From the IMG/VR virus record IMGVR_UViG_3300010429_001737: a DNA stretch of 44,640 nt; one strand, given 5' to 3'. The notes under the pieces are model-generated. The model searched no databases. It had not been told where the DNA came from and was given only the letters and a program-made list of their open reading frames with translations. This stretch comes from a virus (Duplodnaviria > Heunggongvirae > Uroviricota > Caudoviricetes). This document shows, piece after piece, positions 440 through 38,296 of the stretch; position 1 is the first letter of the stretch; each line of letters begins with the position of its first letter. The position numbers and the translations under genes were made by a program.

Positions 440-784
440 TCATTTTTCTGTAATTATAACATGTTTGTTCTTTAAATAGTTTACTAGATAATCATATTGT
501 TCTCTTCTATTTAACATTAGCCACACCACAAAAATAAAAGAGTTTTGATGTGCGGAAAAGCTAAATGAAAAACGATGATGTTTACTACATAAGGTTATCC
601 CGTTATTTATATCAAATCTTAAATCCTCATTCTGTCGATTAATTATGTGATGTGCATTTAACATTTTTGTTTCGTCACAAAATACACATTTAAAGTTATC
701 ACGTTCCTTAACTAATTTAGACCACTCTTTAAACCTTTTCTTATTTTCTATCCTTATTTTTCTTTTCAATTCCTTTTTGTTCAT
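440..784 (-). CDS. HNH endonuclease
   Basis: ERDNFKCVFC...NAHHII...NGITLCSKHH: CxxC plus HNH signature. Confidence 0.8.
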   Translation of the reverse strand: MNKKELKRKIRIENKKRFKEWSKLVKERDNFKCVFCDETKMLNAHHIINRQNEDLRFDINNGITLCSKHHRFSFSFSAHQNSFIFVVWLMLNRREQYDYLVNYLKNKHVIITEK

Positions 785-11551: not shown

Positions 11552-12409
11552 ATGCACAAAACAAAAACATTATTACGAGAAGACAGGAAGAAAGACTTTA
11601 GAAAAAAAATATATGATAGATATAACGGTGAGTGTTGTTTCACACCTTCTCTTGTACCCATCTGGGCGAGTAAGCGACACTACTTGAACGAAGAACTTAA
11701 TGTTAAGTGTACCAACAAAGATGACTTAATGATTTACAGAAAGAATGGCAACATGAACAACAACGAAGATACTAATATCTTACTGCTATGCAAACATCAT
11801 TACGGTATTATGTTTCATGAGTTAAGAGACATGCCCAAACGAATCAATAACCAGAAACAAGGCATCAGAAAAGAAACTAAAGTGAAAACAATCATCACCT
11901 TATCTGAATTCAAACAAATTCTAAGTAACGTTACTATTCCGCAACACCTAATGCTGTTACAAACATTATATTATCTAGGAGGTAGAGTAACGGAAGTTGT
12001 TTTACTAGAAAAGAATGATGTACATCTGGCTAGAGACAATCCTTATGTTACGTTTAAAGCTGAGAACACTAAAAGAAAGGTAGAACGTCATGTTACCATA
12101 CCGAAGAACATGATTGAACCCTTTAAAGCTTATTTTAAATTAATAGAAAACAAACAAAGACTGTTTGACTTCACGAAACAAAGGGCATGGCAAATCGTTA
12201 AAATATATGTTAAGAAAGCCGGCATCAAAAAGAACATACATCCCCACTCGTTCCGACATAGTTATGCGACAGAAATATATAACACAACCAAAGACTTAAA
12301 GATGGTGCAAGAACTACTAGGACATAAGAATATGGCTACGACTTCAATATATGCTCACGTTAGTGATGAAACGAAGAAGGAGGCACTAGATAAAGTGTTT
12401 GGAAGCTAA
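11552..12409 (+). CDS. Tyrosine recombinase (Xer/integrase-like) with HNH-like N-terminal region
   Basis: Catalytic set GGRVTEV, HPHSFRHSYAT, VQELLGH, TTSIY. Confidence 0.9.
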   Translation: MHKTKTLLREDRKKDFRKKIYDRYNGECCFTPSLVPIWASKRHYLNEELNVKCTNKDDLMIYRKNGNMNNNEDTNILLLCKHHYGIMFHELRDMPKRINNQKQGIRKETKVKTIITLSEFKQILSNVTIPQHLMLLQTLYYLGGRVTEVVLLEKNDVHLARDNPYVTFKAENTKRKVERHVTIPKNMIEPFKAYFKLIENKQRLFDFTKQRAWQIVKIYVKKAGIKKNIHPHSFRHSYATEIYNTTKDLKMVQELLGHKNMATTSIYAHVSDETKKEALDKVFGS

Positions 12410-13105: not shown

Positions 13106-14278
13106 TTACCAAGCTAAGCATTTCAAATAGTTAACTTCACTCATAGAACATTCATCTGCATTATCGTTAAAGTTAGGTTCTTTCGCCATTGCCCAATAAT
13201 CAACACAACTAACTGGATATATTACTCCTGCAGTTGATTCTAGAATAGTCCACCCACTATTAGGTAACCAGACTTCGACCCAAGTATGTGCACCACCGCC
13301 TGTAATATATCGGTTACCTTCTTTTACTTCTTTTGACATTTTAATTTCTGGTTTAAATACTGTCATTGTTTGACATGTAACATCCAAATGAACACAACCA
13401 GTAACTTCTCTTGCTGCCAAACCTAATCCTCTTAATACGGCAACATTAACTCGAGACATTGTTGAACAAACACCTTTCTTATTATTCCAAATTTGTGATG
13501 CCCTATTATTATAACAATATGGCCCTGTTTGATACTTGGTGTCATAATCTACACTTTGAAAAACAGTATATGCAACATTCTTTGCAGCAAACTTAGGGTC
13601 CTTGTTCCCATTAAGTGATGTTACTATAACAATGTTTTTTATTGTTGAAGACTTATAATCATAATACCATGTTTCTTTTAAATAATCGTCAGATATTCCA
13701 GCTGCTTTCCTAGCTGTTTCATATGAATCAGAAAACTTAGGTAATCCAGAAACAATATCCTGATTACACTTTCCATTGATACATGTAAATCCTGAATAAC
13801 AAGTCCCACATGATATAGTTCCGCCGCAGCCATCAGAAAAAGTGCCACATGTTTTACTTAATGAAGAACAAGTATCCTTTATGCAAGAAGGTTTACATAT
13901 TCCATTTGAACATACATCACCACTTCCACAACTTCCACATTCTATACTTCCACCACAACTGTCAGGCCATAAGCCGCATCCCTTATACCCAGATAAACAT
14001 GATAGCGGTTTACAGAAAGGAGCATCTTTGCAATCACCAAAAGAACCACACCCATAATCACAATATTCACCATTAATCCACTGAGTTCCTTGCGAATTAC
14101 ATGTAGACGAATAATCATCTATGCATCGTTTATCACCAGGAGTACATATTCTTGAAACACTGGGAGAATTAGAAAAATAATTTATCGAAAAAACAGCTCC
14201 CCATATTAACACTGCCGCTAATATAATAATGCCAAAAATTCCTAATGCTATCTTTAGTTTACTAGGTTTTCTTTTCAT
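13106..14278 (-). CDS. Membrane-anchored Cys-rich-repeat transglutaminase-like protein (start revised from 14341)
   Basis: TM helix, two CG..DxCGG..CGxC repeats, GVCSTM (Cys), HTWVEV (His), GWTILEST; start 21 nt from a class B promoter. Confidence 0.75.
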   Translation of the reverse strand: MKRKPSKLKIALGIFGIIILAAVLIWGAVFSINYFSNSPSVSRICTPGDKRCIDDYSSTCNSQGTQWINGEYCDYGCGSFGDCKDAPFCKPLSCLSGYKGCGLWPDSCGGSIECGSCGSGDVCSNGICKPSCIKDTCSSLSKTCGTFSDGCGGTISCGTCYSGFTCINGKCNQDIVSGLPKFSDSYETARKAAGISDDYLKETWYYDYKSSTIKNIVIVTSLNGNKDPKFAAKNVAYTVFQSVDYDTKYQTGPYCYNNRASQIWNNKKGVCSTMSRVNVAVLRGLGLAAREVTGCVHLDVTCQTMTVFKPEIKMSKEVKEGNRYITGGGAHTWVEVWLPNSGWTILESTAGVIYPVSCVDYWAMAKEPNFNDNADECSMSEVNYLKCLAW

Positions 14279-14298
14279 AGAATTAGTATGCTTTAAAG

Positions 14299-14320
14299 CT
14301 TTATAAATATTATTGTTAAT
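14299..14320 (-). promoter_or_regulatory. Class B promoter
   Basis: ATTAACAATAATATTTATAAAG on the minus strand. Confidence 0.75.
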
Positions 14321-14441
14321 ATTTGGGTAACCTAAAAACATGGTCTATGAAAACATATATAAAGTATAGAGAATTTAACAAAATATGTATAAGGAAGACA
14401 AATACCACACGGCTTAACTTAAATAAACCGTGGAGGTATAA

Positions 14442-19752: not shown

Positions 19753-22257
19753 TTATATCTTTATACTAGCAATGTTTTGAGGTGTAATTCCCCAGTTACT
19801 CAAAAGTGTTTGTTTTTTGGATTTCATATCAATGTAACTTATTATAATCTTAGGGTCTATTTTAAGCATGATTAACTGCTTTTCGACGATTTTAAATGCA
19901 CTATTCATAAGCATTTTTTCCATATCTATCTCTAAGTCTTTTGGCACTTCTGAGTTATTATTAAAACAAAAACTTGTCGTTGGATATTTAGGAGTGGCCT
20001 TTACATATAATAAATAAGGCTTTGGCGAAAACTGAAACCCATGTATATATTTTTCAGAAAACCTTACCCCATCAATCCATGGGTTACCCGTTTTATACTC
20101 ATCTAAGTCTTTTGATATAGCTTTAGGAATCCCTATATATTCCATCGGATATTCTTTTTTATGAAACTTATCTATTTCACTTGTTATAAAACGTAAAACT
20201 TCATCCTTAGATTTATTATCAAATATCATTTCGAAGACTTTCCGTTGAAGAGTCTTTGAAAATGTGCTTCTATCACTTTTAACAGTTGCAAAACCCTTAA
20301 GCTCAATTTTTGGTTTTTCTAATAATCCGCCTTCCCAGTCCCAAACAATTTTACCACCATAACACTTCTTGTCCCCGGTATTCAATAACATTTGATATAG
20401 CTTCTCAAACTTAATTGAAAAATATGTCGTATCGATATTACTACCTTTAAACCATTCAACAAATGAACTATTAATTGCGGCCTCAAGTTCTTTTCCAATT
20501 TTTATGGCTTCTTCAGTGCTGTTTGTCTTTGTATCAACCATACAACTATCTGTATCAGCATTTGTAACAATGTAGCCTTTGCTTCTAACCAATTCTCTCA
20601 TCTTTTCATTAATTGTCCGACCAAGAAATGTTATAGAACTACCAATCGCGGGGTTGAATAAACGAAAACCAGGAAACAGTGTTATACCATAGGCAGAATT
20701 TGTAAACGTTTTTAGATGATATTGAGTCTTATATAATCGAGTATACAATTCAGCATCGTTATAAACTTCTGGTTTTTTTAACATTGCTCTAATTTTATCT
20801 CGTCTATCAATTAAATCTTTCAGAACACTAGATAAAATACCCGTTTTATTTGAAAAACGAATTCCATTTCCAATTATAATCTCGCCATCACCGGAAACTG
20901 TTTCGGGACTCATATTACATGCCAACATTATAGCCGGATACATACCTTTAATATCAAGAACAGCTATATTTTTATGTATACCAGGAACAGAATTTAAAAC
21001 GAAACCCCCTTCTATTTTATCTTTCTTTTCTTCTTTTTCTTTTTTAGTGTATTTCTTTTTATCAGGAAGAATAAACTTTCCCTTACATTGTCTTAAAATG
21101 TATGTATCAAATAAACGAGAATTCTGTAAAACATCAGATAGCTCTGCTCCGCATAATCGTCTAACACCTAACAAAGAATCTAGAATGTTATATTTTCTAT
21201 TTATAGCAATGCAAATTTCAACATCCTTGATATTATATTTCAAGAAATTTTCGAAGTCGTTTTTCCAAAACTCACTTATCCATCCTTCGTATTCAACTTT
21301 ACCAGAATTAAATTCTGTTTTAGCTACGACATCAAGTTTAAACGACGGGATGCCTTTCCATTTCAAACGTTTGTAGCCAGCCATTAAATCAATAAAAGCT
21401 CGTCCTCTAATCATAACACTTTTTTTTCGCCATGAACTCTGTGTCACTGAACTATCCTTACCAGAACGATAACATATATGACCATTATCATAACTTATTT
21501 TCTTTATTGGCGATAATGACTCAGGTTCCAAATTTAAAATGTTCATTCTGTGTAAAATATAAGCAAAATCGAATGCTGCGTTCCACCCTGTTAAAATATC
21601 AAAATCTAATTCACACATATAAGACTTAAACAATGTCAATAATTCTACTTCGTTTTCAACAATTGTTTCAACAATCTCAACATCAGTTCCTAGCTCTTTA
21701 TCGACGTTTCGATATGTTCTTTGTCCGGTTTCACCATTTTCTTTATATGATAAAGCATAAATTCTATTACTATAATTATCAAAAAATGATATAGCTGTTA
21801 TAGGGAAAGTCATTTCTTTATTACTGCCGCCGGCGTAAAGAGTCTCAATGTCAACAATCATAATACGAGGCACAGATTCACAATCAGAATGTTTAATATC
21901 TTCACCATCAAATTCGACACCTGTATATATCTCTTTATCAATTAAAATCTTTGTTGGGTATACAATGTCTGATTCAAACGTCTTAGAGAATTTGTGTTTA
22001 ACGTCTTTTAAGTCCCATGGGTTAGTAAGATATACTTTTAATAACTTATCGTTGAAAATAGAAACGAAACCGTCATCTGAATGACATGGAAAATCAATCT
22101 TATCTTCTTCAGATTCTAAAATATAAAAAAAAGTAGGTGGACCGTTAATAGTAATATCTATTTTATTCTTATCAACGTCTCTTCCAAACAATCTTAATCC
22201 GCTTGGACTTTTGTCTTTGTAACATTGCTCAATCGTAAACATTTCAAATTTTACCAT
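19753..22257 (-). CDS. polB: Family B DNA polymerase (RNA-primed type, with 3'-5' exonuclease)
   Basis: ExoI DIET, ExoII GWNAAFDF, ExoIII YNIKD; motif A DIKGMYP, motif B KTFTNSAYG, motif C ADTDS. Confidence 0.95.
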   Translation of the reverse strand: MVKFEMFTIEQCYKDKSPSGLRLFGRDVDKNKIDITINGPPTFFYILESEEDKIDFPCHSDDGFVSIFNDKLLKVYLTNPWDLKDVKHKFSKTFESDIVYPTKILIDKEIYTGVEFDGEDIKHSDCESVPRIMIVDIETLYAGGSNKEMTFPITAISFFDNYSNRIYALSYKENGETGQRTYRNVDKELGTDVEIVETIVENEVELLTLFKSYMCELDFDILTGWNAAFDFAYILHRMNILNLEPESLSPIKKISYDNGHICYRSGKDSSVTQSSWRKKSVMIRGRAFIDLMAGYKRLKWKGIPSFKLDVVAKTEFNSGKVEYEGWISEFWKNDFENFLKYNIKDVEICIAINRKYNILDSLLGVRRLCGAELSDVLQNSRLFDTYILRQCKGKFILPDKKKYTKKEKEEKKDKIEGGFVLNSVPGIHKNIAVLDIKGMYPAIMLACNMSPETVSGDGEIIIGNGIRFSNKTGILSSVLKDLIDRRDKIRAMLKKPEVYNDAELYTRLYKTQYHLKTFTNSAYGITLFPGFRLFNPAIGSSITFLGRTINEKMRELVRSKGYIVTNADTDSCMVDTKTNSTEEAIKIGKELEAAINSSFVEWFKGSNIDTTYFSIKFEKLYQMLLNTGDKKCYGGKIVWDWEGGLLEKPKIELKGFATVKSDRSTFSKTLQRKVFEMIFDNKSKDEVLRFITSEIDKFHKKEYPMEYIGIPKAISKDLDEYKTGNPWIDGVRFSEKYIHGFQFSPKPYLLYVKATPKYPTTSFCFNNNSEVPKDLEIDMEKMLMNSAFKIVEKQLIMLKIDPKIIISYIDMKSKKQTLLSNWGITPQNIASIKI

Positions 22258-22958
22258 TTGTATTTCTCCGGAATTTTATTTGCAAAAAGTTTTTTAGAAC
22301 AATCATACAACAGATACTGCCCCTTAACAATGTTCTTAAAAAGAATAAATTTATAACCCATATTATATGAAGCACGTATCTTACGTTGTATAATAGTTGG
22401 TCGTAAATCTGACAAAAGTTCAATCGCTATAAAATGTCCCGACTCACTGGCGACTAAGTCCGGAATATACCCTATTCCTAAACCTGCCGTAGCAACATTC
22501 TTAATTTTTAGCTTCTTGTGACATTCAATGACAGCATTTCTTTGAAACGACAAATCTTTCGGTACACCTTTTATTTTTGGGTTATTCAAATTCGCCTGAG
22601 AAACTGTCCGACGCTTAATACCATTCAATTGTAAAAACCGCTTAATGGTTTGAACAGAAAGCTTATATTTCTTGGCAATGTCATACATCGAGGCCCGTTT
22701 ATTATACATCTTAATAATATCGTTTTTATTATTCTCTAACATCCGACGTTCCTTAGTAATAAAAAGATGTATTGGAATCCTCTCACGAATAGTCCATTCG
22801 CGTAAGGTTTGAGGATGCATCTTTATTTTTCTAGCTATTTCTTTTACAGACATTCCTTGAGAGTGCATTACTAAAAACTTATTTCTGAATTCTTTAGGAA
22901 ACATACTTGCATGTCTAGTCTCCCAACCTCTAACAACTTGTTCTGTTTTTGGTTTCAT
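22251..22958 (-). CDS. HTH-repeat plus PD-(D/E)XK nuclease, homing-endonuclease-like (start revised from 23162)
   Basis: Two HTH-like repeats (MSVKEIARKIKM, SMYDIAKKYKL) then YIPDLVA...FIAIEL; the track extension overlaps the TS-like gene. Confidence 0.55.
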   Translation of the reverse strand: MKPKTEQVVRGWETRHASMFPKEFRNKFLVMHSQGMSVKEIARKIKMHPQTLREWTIRERIPIHLFITKERRMLENNKNDIIKMYNKRASMYDIAKKYKLSVQTIKRFLQLNGIKRRTVSQANLNNPKIKGVPKDLSFQRNAVIECHKKLKIKNVATAGLGIGYIPDLVASESGHFIAIELLSDLRPTIIQRKIRASYNMGYKFILFKNIVKGQYLLYDCSKKLFANKIPEKYKW

Positions 22959-23001: not shown

Positions 23002-23730
23002 CTACCAACGATATGATTCCGGAACGTCCCGTGCGTACACATGTAAACTGTCAATGCTTTGAATAACATAGCCAACAGGAATTCCGACTTTTTCTGAAAT
23101 ATACTGTAATAATAAAACCCCCTTTGCAAAATCCAACGGGAAGAAATTAATTGCATCAGCACTCCTCTGATTAATTATCAAATTTAACTTATCACCAGGC
23201 ACTGTTGGGCGACAAATGAAATGAAATGAAGTCGTGCAAGGAATTCTTCTGCCTACTGTAGAAATGTCTGTTTCTCTAGATACAATTATTTGAGCCCCTG
23301 TACTATATTTATTTCTTTTTATCTTTTCTATAAGTGGTTGTATTTGATTTATCATTCTATTACCATAAGAATATGATGCATTACCGTCTTTCTCTTCACA
23401 AAATTCTTTCCAATATCTCTTTGATGATTCATGTAATTGCCACCAATTTTCTCTTAATGTATTATTCTGAGTCATATCCTTTAGCCATTCATAAGCAGAA
23501 TCTATAGCTAAGTGTTCCTTGTTAAATGTTTCACGAGCTTTATCTAACATGTCTTTTAAATCATCAAAATTATCAACCCTAAAGTTATAAAATACTAACT
23601 CTCTTCTTTCAAAGTCTTTCGGGTCAACGATTTTACCTTGCACAGTTTGGTCAAAGATAGTCTGTCCTCTTTTCCATACCTCTCTGTATGTTTCATCAAG
23701 CATTTGAATACATGATGTGAAGATTCTCAT
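23002..23730 (-). CDS. Thymidylate-synthase-superfamily enzyme, predicted dCMP hydroxymethylase or methylase
   Basis: SYSYGNR, IPCT (catalytic Cys), QRSADAINFFPLD (Asp at the specificity site), SLHVY. Confidence 0.8.
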   Translation of the reverse strand: MRIFTSCIQMLDETYREVWKRGQTIFDQTVQGKIVDPKDFERRELVFYNFRVDNFDDLKDMLDKARETFNKEHLAIDSAYEWLKDMTQNNTLRENWWQLHESSKRYWKEFCEEKDGNASYSYGNRMINQIQPLIEKIKRNKYSTGAQIIVSRETDISTVGRRIPCTTSFHFICRPTVPGDKLNLIINQRSADAINFFPLDFAKGVLLLQYISEKVGIPVGYVIQSIDSLHVYARDVPESYRW

Positions 23731-24158
23731 TTGACAGCTACCTCCCTTTCAATAACATATGTTGGCAAATTGTGTTTTAGTTGACTTGAAAACTTAACAT
23801 AATTATGTTTTTTGTGGAGTCCTTCGTTTTTAAGCTGGTCTCGACTAATCTGATAGATGCAATATTTCTTATATTTGTGTTGTTTCATAAACCAAACAAC
23901 AAATAAATAATCTGCAACAAAAACTTGAGATTTAAATTCAGAAGAATACGCATTTGGAATCGAGTTCTGTTTAGTGGTTCCTTTAACTTCAGCTGTAAAT
24001 GTTTTTTTCCCTCTTACACATATTAAGTCAATACCTTTAAATCTAGCATCATGTGAAACATCTTCCGTTTTATATTTTTTTGACGATAAATATTCTTGTA
24101 TAATATTCATCGCTTTAATACCTATAGTATGACGGATATTTTCTTTTCCTGTTTTCAT
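23727..24158 (-). CDS. Restriction-endonuclease-like PD-(D/E)XK protein (DUF3883-like)
   Basis: GIDLIC...TAEVKGT. Confidence 0.65.
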   Translation of the reverse strand: MKTGKENIRHTIGIKAMNIIQEYLSSKKYKTEDVSHDARFKGIDLICVRGKKTFTAEVKGTTKQNSIPNAYSSEFKSQVFVADYLFVVWFMKQHKYKKYCIYQISRDQLKNEGLHKKHNYVKFSSQLKHNLPTYVIEREVAVK

Positions 24159-24159
24159 T

Positions 24160-24567
24160 TTAATAATTACTCTCCCGTCTAAACTCGTTGACGATTAATT
24201 TTTTAATATAAGTTTCTTTAAAAGTTTCTGCATTGAAATCCAATAACAATAATAATTGAATCATAAAAGCAAACATATCACATATCTCTTCAGTCATATG
24301 TTCTTCGTCAGTTGGATATTCTTCTATACACCAAGATTTGTTCTTTAACGTATTGGCAAATTCAAAAGATTCTTCTGTCATAGCAAACAATATTTTTCTG
24401 ATTTGTTCTTGACCTTCTCTACTATGAATATTAACTTTCTTAGTTCCGTATTTAGTCATATAATGTCTTCCGATTTTAAAAAATAACTCTAAGTTATCAC
24501 ATTCACCGTTGCCGAATTCTTTTAATTTCTTTTCAACATCCTCTTTGGGTATATTTAAAATATTCAT
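24160..24567 (-). CDS. All-alpha dimeric dUTPase/dCTPase (MazG-like superfamily)
   Basis: EESFEF...KNKSW...EEICD and C-terminal KLIVNEFRRESNY. Confidence 0.75.
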   Translation of the reverse strand: MNILNIPKEDVEKKLKEFGNGECDNLELFFKIGRHYMTKYGTKKVNIHSREGQEQIRKILFAMTEESFEFANTLKNKSWCIEEYPTDEEHMTEEICDMFAFMIQLLLLLDFNAETFKETYIKKLIVNEFRRESNY

Positions 24568-24710
24568 TTCTTTTTTCTCCTATCTTCATATCTTTGCCAT
24601 AGTATTTGATTTAATTGAGTGGAAGTATCTAAGTGATTAGTCGCTGCTTCATCTTTTAAAGCTTCAATATTCTCAATATCCAATGTAACTGATAAATTAT
24701 CTTTTGTCAT
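24564..24710 (-). CDS. Ribbon-helix-helix-like protein (48 aa, not in ORF track)
   Basis: NLSVTLDIENIEALKDEAA...TSTQLNQIL; ATGA coupling. Confidence 0.55.
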   Translation of the reverse strand: MTKDNLSVTLDIENIEALKDEAATNHLDTSTQLNQILWQRYEDRRKKK

Positions 24711-24729
24711 TTTATAATATATTATAACA

Positions 24730-25047
24730 TTAACTTATATTTAAATGTTTCTTTGATTTAGCTTCTTTTTCACGCATAATGAGAAAAAATATCAAATAAT
24801 TGATGATATCAATGACGTTATCATCGACTTTCTCGTAATTATTAGCCAGATTAATATGATTAAGTTCTAAATCCAATTGATGTCTCAACCGTTTGAACTT
24901 ATTAAATGCATGGAAATAATGACCTAAACTTTCCATTTCGTTATAACTATCGCCATATAACGATTTTCTTTCTTTTCGTATTTTCAGTATTTTTTCTATT
25001 ATTTTTTGATAATCATCAATTGATGATTTTTTGATTTTTTGTTTCAT
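24730..25047 (-). CDS. DUF1599 / nucleotide-modification-associated domain 1 (Nmad1)-like protein
   Basis: K..YGDS...NKFKRL...E...D..ID.INY pattern. Confidence 0.65.
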   Translation of the reverse strand: MKQKIKKSSIDDYQKIIEKILKIRKERKSLYGDSYNEMESLGHYFHAFNKFKRLRHQLDLELNHINLANNYEKVDDNVIDIINYLIFFLIMREKEAKSKKHLNIS

Positions 25048-27678: not shown

Positions 27679-28623
27679 CTATTTGTCATTTTTATCGTTT
27701 CTCCATCTTACAAACGTTGGATGTCGCACACAATCTTTTACACCAATTAGCATTCCCTTAAATTCTATCCATTTACCAATATACTGTTTTCTGTTTTTCC
27801 AAACTTCTCGTCTGAACTCTTCTGTGCCTGTTAATGCAACTTTCTGTTTTTGACCTTCATAATCAACAACAAATGAACCAGCAATACCGGTAGGTATCAT
27901 AGCCTCTTTATTATTATGCTTCTGTGATTTCCCTAATTCGTTAATATAAGATTCACTTGTATTAAGATAACGTTCTTCTATGTCTATAATCTGAGCATCA
28001 AACGTTCTATATGGTTTCACCTTGTACATCGTACCTTCGTTCATTGTGCATCTGCCAAACTTATACCGACTATCGTACGATTTCAATATCAAGCCTTCAT
28101 ATCCGTCGCCTAAAACTTCTTCAAAATATTCCATAACGGCTTCTTTAGAATGAACAGCTTTCTGTTCAACAACTTCCACTAATTCAGCATAATAACACAT
28201 TTCGTCAACTTCTTGCAATCTTGTTTCAAAAGGAACATCAAATTTTAAATCTTCAACTGCATCGAAACAGTAGAATTTTAATTTCTCCGGTATTATCTCT
28301 TCATGGCCAACTTTCTTAATGTTCTTAGAATCGTCTAAATCCTGAGTCATGATGAAGTGGGTTATCTCTTGGAAAGTCATTCCTTCGCCGTAAAGTTCTC
28401 CATCCAAGATTATATTGTATTTCTTAGAGTATTCAGCTAACACTTTAAACTTCTCTTGCATTTGTTTATTTGGAATAGGTTTAAGAGAACGTGATAACAT
28501 TTGGCCATTCATAAAAATACATCTAATCCCATCAAGCTTAGTAGAAGCTAGAATCGGATATTTAATGTTATCTAAATCCACTTCGTCGTTCGGTGCAAGC
28601 ATAGGCCTGAACTTCTTATCCAT
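27679..28623 (-). CDS. lig: Minimal ATP-dependent DNA ligase
   Basis: Motif I KLDGIR, III LDGEL, IV YEGLILK, V YKVKP, OB tail VRHPTF. Confidence 0.92.
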   Translation of the reverse strand: MDKKFRPMLAPNDEVDLDNIKYPILASTKLDGIRCIFMNGQMLSRSLKPIPNKQMQEKFKVLAEYSKKYNIILDGELYGEGMTFQEITHFIMTQDLDDSKNIKKVGHEEIIPEKLKFYCFDAVEDLKFDVPFETRLQEVDEMCYYAELVEVVEQKAVHSKEAVMEYFEEVLGDGYEGLILKSYDSRYKFGRCTMNEGTMYKVKPYRTFDAQIIDIEERYLNTSESYINELGKSQKHNNKEAMIPTGIAGSFVVDYEGQKQKVALTGTEEFRREVWKNRKQYIGKWIEFKGMLIGVKDCVRHPTFVRWRNDKNDK

Positions 28624-29608
28624 TTTTCACCTTAATATTCTGTATCGTTTCGTTTAATATATCTAAATCAAGAACTCGTAATTCTTTGTCCCAAAATCGT
28701 ATTGTTTTTAGACCTGTTGCTAATAATTCCTGTTCACGAATAATATCAATTTCATTTCCATTAGGCCAATTATGCCATTTCATCCCGTCAATCTCAATAA
28801 CCAACTTATGATTTGGTAAATAGAAATCGACAGGATAAGCATGTTCTATATTTAGTATAGGATAGTTATGTTTATAAGTAATATGTAAAGCATCTAGCAT
28901 TTGTTTAAATTTTTGTTCAGGTCTTGTGTTAAAATACTGTTTATTAGGCACTTGTCCAGTAGCAATACGTTTAACCGTCGCAACACGAAGTTTTCTTGAT
29001 ATAACAGCTTTCTCTTCCGAGCTCATGTTTTGGAAAGTTTCTGAAATGTTTTTTCCAATTACAGCTACTTTCTGACAATTAAACTTATTCAATCCTTTAT
29101 TCCACGACGTATGGTCCGTTTGTATTAATGCCCTTTTTATTTTTTCGGACTTATGTTTTCCAATTGTCTCTTTCCATTCCTTATCGTTTTCCCTCTTTCT
29201 TATATTTTCAGAAATTTGATACATAATTATATTAGACTCTTTTGTTAAGCCTTTATTCCATGAAGATTTAAAACTCTTATATCTTTCATTGCATTCTGGA
29301 CATCTGGTCAATAACTCTAGTAAGGATTTTTTGGCATCAATCTTATGTAATCGTTTTTCTCCTAAATATAATGTCATCAACTTCGAAAATAAAAATGGTT
29401 TTTTAGGAGAATATCCCCTCCTAATCATTTCTGTTCTTAATTCGTTATACCGACGTTTTATGTACAAAGGTTGAATTAAGTCATTATCAAAATACCCCTG
29501 TAAGCTTATCTGTTTTCTAAGACTACCAACTATTGTAAATAATTCTCGATATTCCCCTAATAAGTGTTGGCGACACATTATTTTTGGATTACACATCCAC
29601 ATTCTCAT
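28616..29608 (-). CDS. Pyrimidine-dimer glycosylase (DenV/T4 EndoV-like) fused to a DUF559/Vsr-like endonuclease
   Basis: N-term MRMWM...CRQHLLGEYREL...EMIRRGY; linker SWNKGL x2; C-term TRPEQKF...VDFYL...VIEIDG..WH. Confidence 0.75.
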   Translation of the reverse strand: MRMWMCNPKIMCRQHLLGEYRELFTIVGSLRKQISLQGYFDNDLIQPLYIKRRYNELRTEMIRRGYSPKKPFLFSKLMTLYLGEKRLHKIDAKKSLLELLTRCPECNERYKSFKSSWNKGLTKESNIIMYQISENIRKRENDKEWKETIGKHKSEKIKRALIQTDHTSWNKGLNKFNCQKVAVIGKNISETFQNMSSEEKAVISRKLRVATVKRIATGQVPNKQYFNTRPEQKFKQMLDALHITYKHNYPILNIEHAYPVDFYLPNHKLVIEIDGMKWHNWPNGNEIDIIREQELLATGLKTIRFWDKELRVLDLDILNETIQNIKVKNG

Positions 29609-37230: not shown

Positions 37231-37680
37231 CTATCTGTCATAATCAGATAACCTCCTCTGACCATGAGTGTTTTCTTTCTTTCTTTCTATTTTTTCAGGT
37301 CTTATAGAAGGACCTTCTATTTGCTTCATATCTAATAATGACACAAAGGTTTGTTCACCATGCAACCAATTAGCAGCAGGATGTGAATGTTCTTTATCTC
37401 TAAAATAACCCAGAGGACAAGAGAATTTTCGTATAGTTTTTTCTTGTGACTTATTAGTATATTCCCATGTTAAAATTAATGTATCAACTTTATAAATAAC
37501 CAATTTGTCGTAAATATTATCGTGAAGTCCATAAGCAAATTGACAACCTGACATTGCATATATTATTGATTGAGGCCCGCCGTGAACATTATGAGCAGTA
37601 GTTCGAAAAGTATTTCCAACTATTTGCCCAACAGCTTTATCGTCCATAATAACATATCCATTTTCTGTAACATTAATCAT
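37231..37680 (-). CDS. Hypothetical protein
   Basis: 149 aa co-directional ORF. Confidence 0.65.
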   Translation of the reverse strand: MINVTENGYVIMDDKAVGQIVGNTFRTTAHNVHGGPQSIIYAMSGCQFAYGLHDNIYDKLVIYKVDTLILTWEYTNKSQEKTIRKFSCPLGYFRDKEHSHPAANWLHGEQTFVSLLDMKQIEGPSIRPEKIERKKENTHGQRRLSDYDR

Positions 37681-38296
37681 TTTTTAAAATCTCCTTAAAT
37701 TTAAGTTTATATTCTTCTGTTTCTTTAATCCCACGTCTTAACACATAAGCGGGATGACATAACGAATAAACGTTATATCTTTCTTTTAATCCTGGTTCTA
37801 AGAAGTTTTTAGCGAACATTCCTAACAATATTATCTTTTTAGGTTTTATTACCTTGATTGCTCTTAATAAATACGGTGTGCATAAAATAACGTTATCCAT
37901 ATCAGGTTTTCCATTCATTGGTGGACTACAAAAACATACATTAGAAATAAAACATTCTTCCTTCCTTATATTATTATTCATCAAAATTTCTGACAATAAT
38001 TTTCCAGAAAATTTTGAAGTAAAGGGTTCACTTGTTATATTACCACCTGAACGAGAAGGCGCTTCACCTATTATTATAATACCATTACTGCCATCACCAT
38101 AACCAAAAACAACTTTTGCATCTGTATACATATTTTTTATATCTTCATTATTCATAACTTCTTCGTTGATTTTTGATAAAGTGTCAGCAGATTTGTCCCT
38201 CCCAATCGTCTCTTTCAGTGCGTGACCGTCAAGACGACTATTGTCCGATTTCACTCTGTCGGGTTTTGTCTGCTGACTATTAATATGTTTTGACAT
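37673..38296 (-). CDS. udg: Uracil-DNA glycosylase, family-4-like
   Basis: IIGEAP, FISNVCFCSPP.N.KP, CTPYL, IILLG, HPAY. Confidence 0.85.
   Translation of the reverse strand: MSKHINSQQTKPDRVKSDNSRLDGHALKETIGRDKSADTLSKINEEVMNNEDIKNMYTDAKVVFGYGDGSNGIIIIGEAPSRSGGNITSEPFTSKFSGKLLSEILMNNNIRKEECFISNVCFCSPPMNGKPDMDNVILCTPYLLRAIKVIKPKKIILLGMFAKNFLEPGLKERYNVYSLCHPAYVLRRGIKETEEYKLKFKEILKND

Follow-up and report, generated by a model that had tools for sequence, protein, structure and literature searches.

A relative of thymidylate synthase predicted to modify dCMP, encoded beside a T4 gp56-like pyrophosphatase in a virus-like element

The gene and its product

Virus record IMGVR_UViG_3300010429_001737 was analysed over its full length of 44.6 kb, here called the window. 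At 23002..23730 on the minus strand, this virus-like element encodes a 242-amino acid (aa) protein, P0001, with the fold of thymidylate synthase (TS). The gene forms one module with genes for a DUF1599 protein, a pyrophosphatase resembling gp56 of phage T4, a PD-(D/E)XK nuclease and a family B DNA polymerase (PolB). Nearly every pyrimidine hypermodification known from viral DNA begins with a relative of TS. P0001 is, in our view, probably an enzyme that modifies deoxycytidine monophosphate (dCMP) at C5, and not a synthase of thymidine monophosphate (dTMP).

The ATG with which the gene opens and the stop of the gene upstream overlap by 4 nucleotides (nt), and GGGAGG lies 13 nt ahead of this ATG. 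Its assignment draws on Pfam, PHROG, phmmer, BLASTP, MAFFT, AlphaFold2 (AF2) and Foldseek. The product matched Pfam PF00303 (Thymidylat_synt; E 9.1e-16, residues 94-237) and PHROG 160 ‘thymidylate synthase’ (E 5.6e-26). Against the NCBIfam thymidylate-synthase equivalogs it scored only 38-44 bits, far below all of their cut-offs (108-327). An AF2 model computed with 60 relatives as input had a predicted local distance difference test score (pLDDT) of 96.7 and a predicted template modelling score (pTM) of 0.93. Foldseek returned 396 PDB matches to this model at E <= 0.001, and the best 50 listed all belonged to the TS superfamily; among the matches listed, the best template modelling (TM) scores, 0.76/0.78, were those of AfhB from phage HY126. 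Both its fold and its catalytic residues place P0001 in the TS superfamily (PF00303 fold). Enzymes of this family are expected to be dimers.

Six independent contigs from several samples, among them a 108,568-bp ENA contig and a contig of GCA_035916335.1, encode the identical protein, which is therefore not the result of an assembly error. No match was obtained when 7 kb around the TS gene were compared by megablast with 50,697 phage records, a single-protein query with P0001 found no related locus in viral contigs, and a profile of the close subclade found no relative in species-representative prokaryote genomes.

Active-site residues

For reference, the sequences of Escherichia coli K-12 ThyA and T4 gp42 were taken from their genome records; sites are given in E. 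coli numbering unless a P0001 residue is named. The P0001 segment R-S-A-D-A-I-N-F-F-P-L-D pairs gap-free with R-S-C-D-V-F-L-G-L-P-F-N of ThyA, which puts Asp200 (codon GAT, 23131-23133) at the site of Asn177. An earlier note on this DNA had reported this pairing, and four independent alignments reproduced it: phmmer to solved TS chains, BLASTP to T4 gp42, MAFFT L-INS-i with 136 relatives, and a profile alignment to the dCMP hydroxylase of phage HY126. The BLASTP alignment pairs Asp200 with gp42 Asp179. From these alignments and the confident AF2 model of the TS fold, Asp200 is predicted to lie in the base pocket.

The catalytic cysteine is Cys165 (codon TGC, 23236-23238), within P-C-T as the same note had it; the corresponding motif is M-C-T in T4 gp42, and the pair Cys165-Thr166 answers to Cys146-His147 of ThyA. 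Arg189-Ser190 (Arg166-Ser167), Asp192 (Asp169), His230 and Tyr232 (His207 and Tyr209) and Tyr122 (Y94) are all retained. Three residues before the catalytic cysteine, at site 143, P0001 has Arg162 in place of the leucine of ThyA. Tyr120 stands two residues before the catalytic-base Tyr122, where hydroxymethylases carry Ser/Thr; in P0001 the Ser/Thr is found one residue before instead. That the C-terminus ends shortly after S-L-H-V-Y was likewise borne out, as 10 residues follow H-V-Y (the Tyr209 site) in P0001, compared with 55 in ThyA and 28 in T4 gp42; the last residue is Trp242. P0001 therefore departs from canonical ThyA in having Asp200 at site 177, a 10-residue tail in place of the C-terminal folate-closing segment, and Arg in place of the hydrophobic Leu143.

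Three further residues set P0001 apart from its eight closest relatives (47-64% identity). Thr144 (codon ACA, 23299-23301, minus strand) occupies the site of R126, where all the others have Arg; the change from Arg is a single base away from AGA, and it is real, since it recurs on all six contigs. An Arg at this site, contributed by the partner subunit, is the ligand of the nucleotide phosphate in TS and in T4 gp42. Ala191 (the Cys168 site) and Asn124 (Glu in the others) are also peculiar to P0001.

These residues can be read against published rules. Asn177 selects deoxyuridine monophosphate (dUMP), Asp at this site leads to a preference for dCMP, and T4 gp42 has Asp179 (PMC13326640, PMC8670742, PMC6400193). 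The Asn177Asp change by itself turns TS into a dCMP methylase (PMC13326640, PMC8670742). What the earlier note had put forward as established on these points agrees with the literature. Sites 177 and 147 together best separate cytosine-modified from unmodified metavirome contigs (PMC8670742), and P0001 has Asp and Thr there. At site 143, Leu goes with a methyl product and Asp/Glu with a hydroxymethyl product, and the recently discovered flavin-dependent 5-hydroxy-dCMP synthases are recognised by Asp169Asn (PMC13326640). In T4 gp42, Asp145, the residue three before the cysteine, activates the substrate water and the D145N variant is inactive, and Ser94, two residues before the tyrosine, belongs to the hydroxymethylase signature, in which Ser/Thr is expected (PMC6400193). 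Ser at site 167 accompanies deoxyribo substrates, and the ribose preference of MilA goes with Ala167 and Lys126; as a residue marker, Ser190 of P0001 indicates a deoxyribo substrate.

A clade with Arg143, Asp169 and Asp177

Searched exhaustively with HMMER, a set of 1.8 billion representatives yielded 754 hits. Residues were counted in 136 full-length proteins (200-340 aa) among the 150 best representatives at 50% identity, and 118 of these 136 combine Arg at site 143 with Asp at site 177. The members are about 240 aa long, carry Arg143/Asp169/Asp177 and mostly end in Phe or Trp (95/118), with a median tail of 10 residues beyond Tyr209. By definition or by conservation, Cys146, Arg166, Arg143 and Asp177 are present in 118/118, Ser/Thr at site 147 in 117/118, Asp169 in 115/118 (Asn in the other 3/118) and Arg126 in 114/118. 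Site 173 is His in 82 and Phe in 26 of the 118, and the tyrosines equivalent to Tyr120 and Tyr122 of P0001 are invariant. P0001 has every feature of the group: Arg three residues before the cysteine, Asp169, Asp177, Ser/Thr147, a length of about 240 aa, an aromatic end and a gp56-like partner.

In the phylogenetic tree, 124 sequences of the Arg143 type and three Asn169 variants formed one clade of 127 rows (support 84) that includes P0001 and no characterised enzyme. ThyA, T4 gp42, a Mosigvirus-type 5-hydroxylase, PaMx74 gp52 and the phiRSL1 enzyme each lie 4.5-5.5 substitutions/site from P0001. The comparison with ThyA and T4 gp42 that the earlier note had proposed was thus carried out at both levels, with Asp200 equated to gp42 Asp179 by alignment and both enzymes placed outside the clade of P0001. 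The clade profile matched HY126 AfhB best (E 2.4e-23, compared with ~1e-18 for TS). The clade fits none of the signatures of canonical TS, T4-type hydroxymethylase, AfhB-type hydroxylase, PaMx74-type methylase or MilA. The enzyme sits in a large uncharacterised branch of the TS family, and its product class is for that reason not legible in the residues.

Clade members occur in cultured phages of Clostridium perfringens (P21, CPD4, CPAS-15 and others), and we found no reports on DNA modification in these phages. Three metagenomic members, P0022, P0099 and P0110, carry Asn169, the marker of 5-hydroxy-dCMP synthases, and by this residue might be hydroxylases that arose inside the Arg143 clade.

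Comparison with known systems

The gp42 and gp56 pair of T4 resembles the locus in several respects. gp42 shares with P0001 the TS fold, the Cys-Thr nucleophile motif, Asp at the base-specificity site, an identical S-L-H-V-Y motif and a shortened C-terminus, and each of the two enzymes is accompanied by a pyrophosphatase of the gp56 type, with a polymerase gene close by. However, the two proteins are only ~27% identical, over 77 residues only, and P0001 has Arg for the essential Asp145, Tyr for Ser94 and no equivalent of Arg127. A gp1-type kinase and a glucosyltransferase, both part of the T4 system, were not found in the window, and gp42 falls outside the Arg143 clade.

The closest solved structure and best profile match is HY126 AfhB, which together with RB69 gp48 (PDB 9iqc, 9iqu) is similar in length (234-238 aa) and has Asp177 and Thr147. 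These two enzymes have Asn169 and Glu143, whereas P0001 has Asp169 and Arg143. The CMP (cytidine monophosphate) hydroxymethylase MilA (PDB 5jnh, 5b6d) gave the top Foldseek E-value, with TM 0.72-0.73, and also has Asp at the cytosine-specificity site. It differs in its ribose sites Ala167/Lys126, the MilA/BcmA combination, where P0001 has Ser190/Thr144, as well as in having Asp at site 143 and carrying a large additional domain at its C-terminus.

Modules of the Xp12/PaMx74 type consist of a TS homologue, a PRA-PH protein, a deaminase and dihydrofolate reductase (DHFR). They share Asp177, Asp169 and an upstream nucleotide pyrophosphatase with the locus of P0001, and a deaminase with many of its clade relatives. 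The PaMx74-type enzyme, which has been linked to complete 5-methylcytosine replacement, is 298 aa long, with 61 residues after Y209 (the full TS C-terminal segment) and Arg21, compared with 242 aa for P0001; its partner is PRA-PH rather than gp56-like.

The gene neighbourhood in the window

The genes of the neighbourhood all lie on the minus strand, in the transcription order DUF1599, a 48-aa open reading frame (ORF), the pyrophosphatase, the PD-(D/E)XK nuclease, the TS homologue, a gene with a double helix-turn-helix (HTH) and PolB. The pyrophosphatase (135 aa, 24160..24567) is an all-alpha nucleoside triphosphate pyrophosphatase of the dUTPase_2/MazG clan and a relative of the T4 gp56 dCTPase/dUTPase. 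It aligned with gp56 in BLASTP (E 8e-5) and in hhalign (91.9%, E 7e-7), the latter alignment reaching a common C-terminal Tyr, and it matches gp56’s own Pfam family, equally weakly. PolB (834 aa, 19753..22257) is the presumed user of the modified deoxynucleoside triphosphate.

The DUF1599 protein (‘nucleotide modification associated domain 1’; 105 aa, 24730..25047) was assigned from a weak Pfam match, Atlas features (score 0.94 with 207-210 shared features) and structure (TM 0.72-0.81). The 48-aa ORF (24564..24710), to which no function was assigned, is the first gene after a TATA-like/AT-rich stretch and likely the start of the transcription unit. A restriction-endonuclease-like nuclease of the PD-(D/E)XK type (143 aa, 23727..24158) follows the pyrophosphatase, its start and stop overlapping both neighbours. 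The gene at the same place in the relative L017 shows no homology to it, for which reason the nuclease was not counted as a conserved member of the module. The nuclease might break down unmodified DNA in the manner of T4 EndoII/IV; a mobile insert is another possibility. The double-HTH protein (235 aa, 22251..22958), encoded between the TS homologue and PolB, has its own promoter-like upstream stretch and is probably mobile or homing-type and outside the pathway; an insertion of this kind is suggested by the varying gene content between TS homologue and polymerase in relatives (L006, L007, L012).

The first genes of units (starts 24710, 22958, 19698 and 19123) are preceded by TTTATATA-like boxes ~30-40 nt before the ATG, with no Shine-Dalgarno sequence, and genes internal to units have GGAGG-like sites. 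This pattern of boxes and ribosome-binding sites fits archaeal-type expression. A kinase, a deaminase, DHFR and a glycosyltransferase were not detected anywhere within the window.

Neighbours across relatives

We compared 59 viral loci with clade members, the window included, over 10 kb on each side, and used 16 loci of the PaMx74-type 5-methylcytosine module as a control. A gp56-like pyrophosphatase was found by jackhmmer seeded with T4 gp56 in 56/59 loci, the window among them, and in none of the 16 control loci; as a BLAST cluster, the same pyrophosphatase was present in 53/59, on the same strand and a median of 1.7 kb upstream. PRA-PH pyrophosphatases showed the reverse distribution (0/59 and 16/16). 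A polymerase adjoins the TS homologue in nearly all clade loci, either a downstream family A polymerase (48/59) or a member of the cluster containing the PolB of the window (5/59). Dihydrofolate reductase was absent from all 59 clade loci and present in 14/16 control loci, a contrast that is only suggestive and neither statistically nor phylogenetically independent, because the control represents one phage lineage. Genes resembling dCMP deaminase occurred in 44/59 clade and 16/16 control loci. A Tmk-like kinase was present in 22/59 clade loci and DUF1599 in 12/59, and no canonical TS was found near the clade gene in the 59 loci.

In 37/59 loci, a 250-300-aa protein with the TS fold and no Pfam hit is encoded directly upstream of the clade TS homologue (e.g. 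L033:8583-9419, plus strand), and many such phages therefore hold two TS-fold paralogues in tandem. The upstream paralogue aligned with the clade over the Cys..R-S-x-D..D core (hhalign E 5e-5) and has an invariant Tyr, Cys and Asp. Its AF2 model had a pLDDT of 89, and the top PDB matches were all from the TS superfamily, with AfhB the best.

An AsnB-like glutamine amidotransferase (GATase_6/7 and Asn_synthase) was present in 14/59 loci, a median of ~3.1 kb upstream, and was absent from the window. In L012 (10967-12310), which holds a 62%-identical relative, and in L018 (10948-12468) the amidotransferase gene separates the TS homologue from the polymerase. This neighbour may point to a further modification step. 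A C5 cytosine DNA methyltransferase adjoins the TS homologue in 15/59 loci (e.g. L062:7314-8504), an odd companion if cytosine has already been replaced before replication.

Probable function and alternatives

The statement of the earlier note that the enzyme would act on dCMP and not make dTMP gains support from Asp177 with Thr147, the TS scores below cut-off, the gp56-like partner and the lack of DHFR. It is probable that the virus-like element builds DNA with C5-modified cytosine, because an active site set for cytosine adjoins a T4-like enzyme that degrades deoxycytidine triphosphate (dCTP) and the element has a DNA polymerase of its own. A dCMP-specific enzyme of the TS superfamily would modify C5 of the free nucleotide ahead of replication. 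By analogy with T4, the gp56-like pyrophosphatase would convert dCTP to dCMP and keep plain dCTP from the polymerase. Cys165 would then attack C6 of dCMP while Asp200 holds the base and protonates it at N3, and a methylene-pterin cofactor, bound by the retained Asp192, would donate the one-carbon unit that is added at C5. In the hydroxymethyl case, the exocyclic methylene intermediate would be hydrated and tetrahydrofolate regenerated; here we infer a role for the invariant Arg162/Tyr120 pair, which would replace the water-activating pair Asp145/Ser94 of T4. The product would, again as in T4, be phosphorylated by a kinase, none having been found in the window, and the element’s PolB, encoded just downstream, would incorporate it.

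The complete statement, in which the product is 5-hydroxymethyl-dCMP, is put forward tentatively and falls somewhat short of an even chance. Hydroxymethylation is favoured by the gp56-type partner, the lack of DHFR in all 59 loci, the short C-terminus, and the invariant and polar Arg162 and Tyr120 at the water-activating sites of T4. Several observations weigh against it. The hydroxymethylase signature is broken at two places, with Arg162 for the essential Asp145 and Tyr120 for Ser94, and a rule that reads product class from replacement of L143 by D/E would class an enzyme with Arg as not hydroxymethyl (PMC13326640). The match to TIGR03283 reaches profile position 199/201; short archaeal TS models stop where P0001 does, and the short tail alone consequently does not exclude methylation. 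A kinase for deoxynucleoside monophosphates, a deaminase and a glycosyltransferase went undetected in the 44.6-kb window. Furthermore, Thr144 in place of the phosphate-binding Arg126, along with Ala for Cys168, may mean weaker nucleotide binding or activity. The 5mC-deaminase preprint reports that 5/7 deaminase-linked Asp177 homologues made 5-methyl-dCMP in vivo, which also counts against a hydroxymethyl product; the Pfam families named there (PRA-PH) are those of the PaMx74-type module and not of the Arg143 clade.

The main rival reading, with the same preprint in its favour but rather unlikely in our estimate, is that P0001 is a dCMP methyltransferase like those of phages Xp12 and PaMx74, in which the methylene would be followed by a hydride from tetrahydrofolate to give 5-methyl-dCMP and dihydrofolate. 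The product would either replace cytosine or, in relatives with an adjoining deaminase and Tmk-like kinase, be deaminated to thymidylate (‘cytosine-first’). Such a route agrees with the frequency of these two genes and with the lack of a canonical TS nearby, with the finding that Asn177Asp alone makes TS a dCMP methylase, and with the missing water-activating Asp/Glu of hydroxymethylases; the aromatic last residue of most members could, in addition, seal the site in the way the C-terminus of TS does. On the other hand, a methylase of the known type comes with DHFR, the full TS C-terminal segment of a 298-aa protein, Arg21 and a PRA-PH partner, none of which accompanies P0001, the window has no deaminase, and two invariant polar residues stand where methylases must exclude water. 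The lack of DHFR and the short C-terminus would suit a flavin-dependent dCMP 5-hydroxylase of the RB69 gp48/HY126 AfhB kind, which draws on O2 and not on a one-carbon unit of folate. By profile and by TM-score AfhB is the nearest of the solved relatives, the lengths are alike, and three clade members have Asn169. Yet the diagnostic Asp169Asn is missing from P0001, which has Asp192 as 115/118 members have Asp, and site 143 is Arg rather than Glu, and we consider this activity highly improbable.

The same Arg, found in 118/118 members at the product-determining site with a charge opposite to that of Asp/Glu, is one reason to consider a chemistry new to the superfamily, in which Arg143, His/Phe173 and Tyr120 would direct another nucleophile, or another pterin of an archaeal host would be used, giving a different C5 substituent. 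The clade fails the signatures of all four characterised product classes, the characterised references lie outside it at 4.5-5.5 substitutions/site, and an AsnB-like amidotransferase or a second TS-fold paralogue often accompanies its members. Nevertheless, there is no positive evidence for any specific alternative product, and hydration or hydride transfer is more economical; we regard a new chemistry as distinctly unlikely. The fuller proposal that the whole clade makes a C5-modified dCMP other than methyl, hydroxymethyl or hydroxyl, or employs a non-folate archaeal pterin, with Arg and Tyr steering a new nucleophile, is in our judgement quite doubtful. An ordinary thymidylate synthase that converts dUMP to dTMP, or a decayed and inactive one, has the least to recommend it, with only a very slight chance of being correct. 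Databases do label the relatives ‘thymidylate synthase’, and P0001 has lost the phosphate ligand Arg126. Against this, site 177 is Asp and not Asn in 118/118, the bit scores fall far below the equivalog cut-offs, all catalytic residues are kept in a protein found identical on six contigs, and the gene is coupled in operon-like fashion to conserved partners. With hydroxymethylation as the preferred reading, the earlier proposal of a 5-hydroxymethyl or 5-methyl product holds in so far as both remain candidates; it left out 5-hydroxy-dCMP, and the signature of no product class is matched.

The theme of an Asp177 TS homologue with a pyrophosphatase is already known from T4, Xp12 and metaviromes. 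What is new is that the Arg143 clade is defined, that none of the published product rules fits it, and that its context is strictly gp56-like and DHFR-free; the presence of a clade member in a putative archaeal-type element is also new. Products of TS relatives are now predicted from three residue positions, and the combination found in this large and widespread clade is covered by no published rule. The product of one clade member would bear on hundreds of viral genomes and test the rule set. The replacement of bases before replication has, to our knowledge, received little attention in archaeal viruses. If the new base is real, this would be the first pre-replicative cytosine-modification pathway of a (presumed) DPANN-type archaeal virus. 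Modified cytosine, if present, would account for restriction resistance and would skew the methylation calls that sequencing gives for such elements.

Other genes of the window

Neither Pfam nor PHROG gave a match for the majority of the remaining proteins encoded in the window. Among those with an assignment are an HNH endonuclease (440-784, minus strand), a tyrosine integrase (11552-12409, plus strand) and a transglutaminase-core protein (13106-14341, minus strand). A DNA-repair set, all on the minus strand, is made up of an ATP-dependent DNA ligase (27679-28623), a T4 endonuclease V-like pyrimidine-dimer glycosylase fused to a DUF559/Vsr-like nuclease domain (28616-29608) and a protein of the uracil-DNA glycosylase (UDG) superfamily (37673-38296). 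In the relative L017, a UDG is encoded between PolB and the pyrophosphatase.

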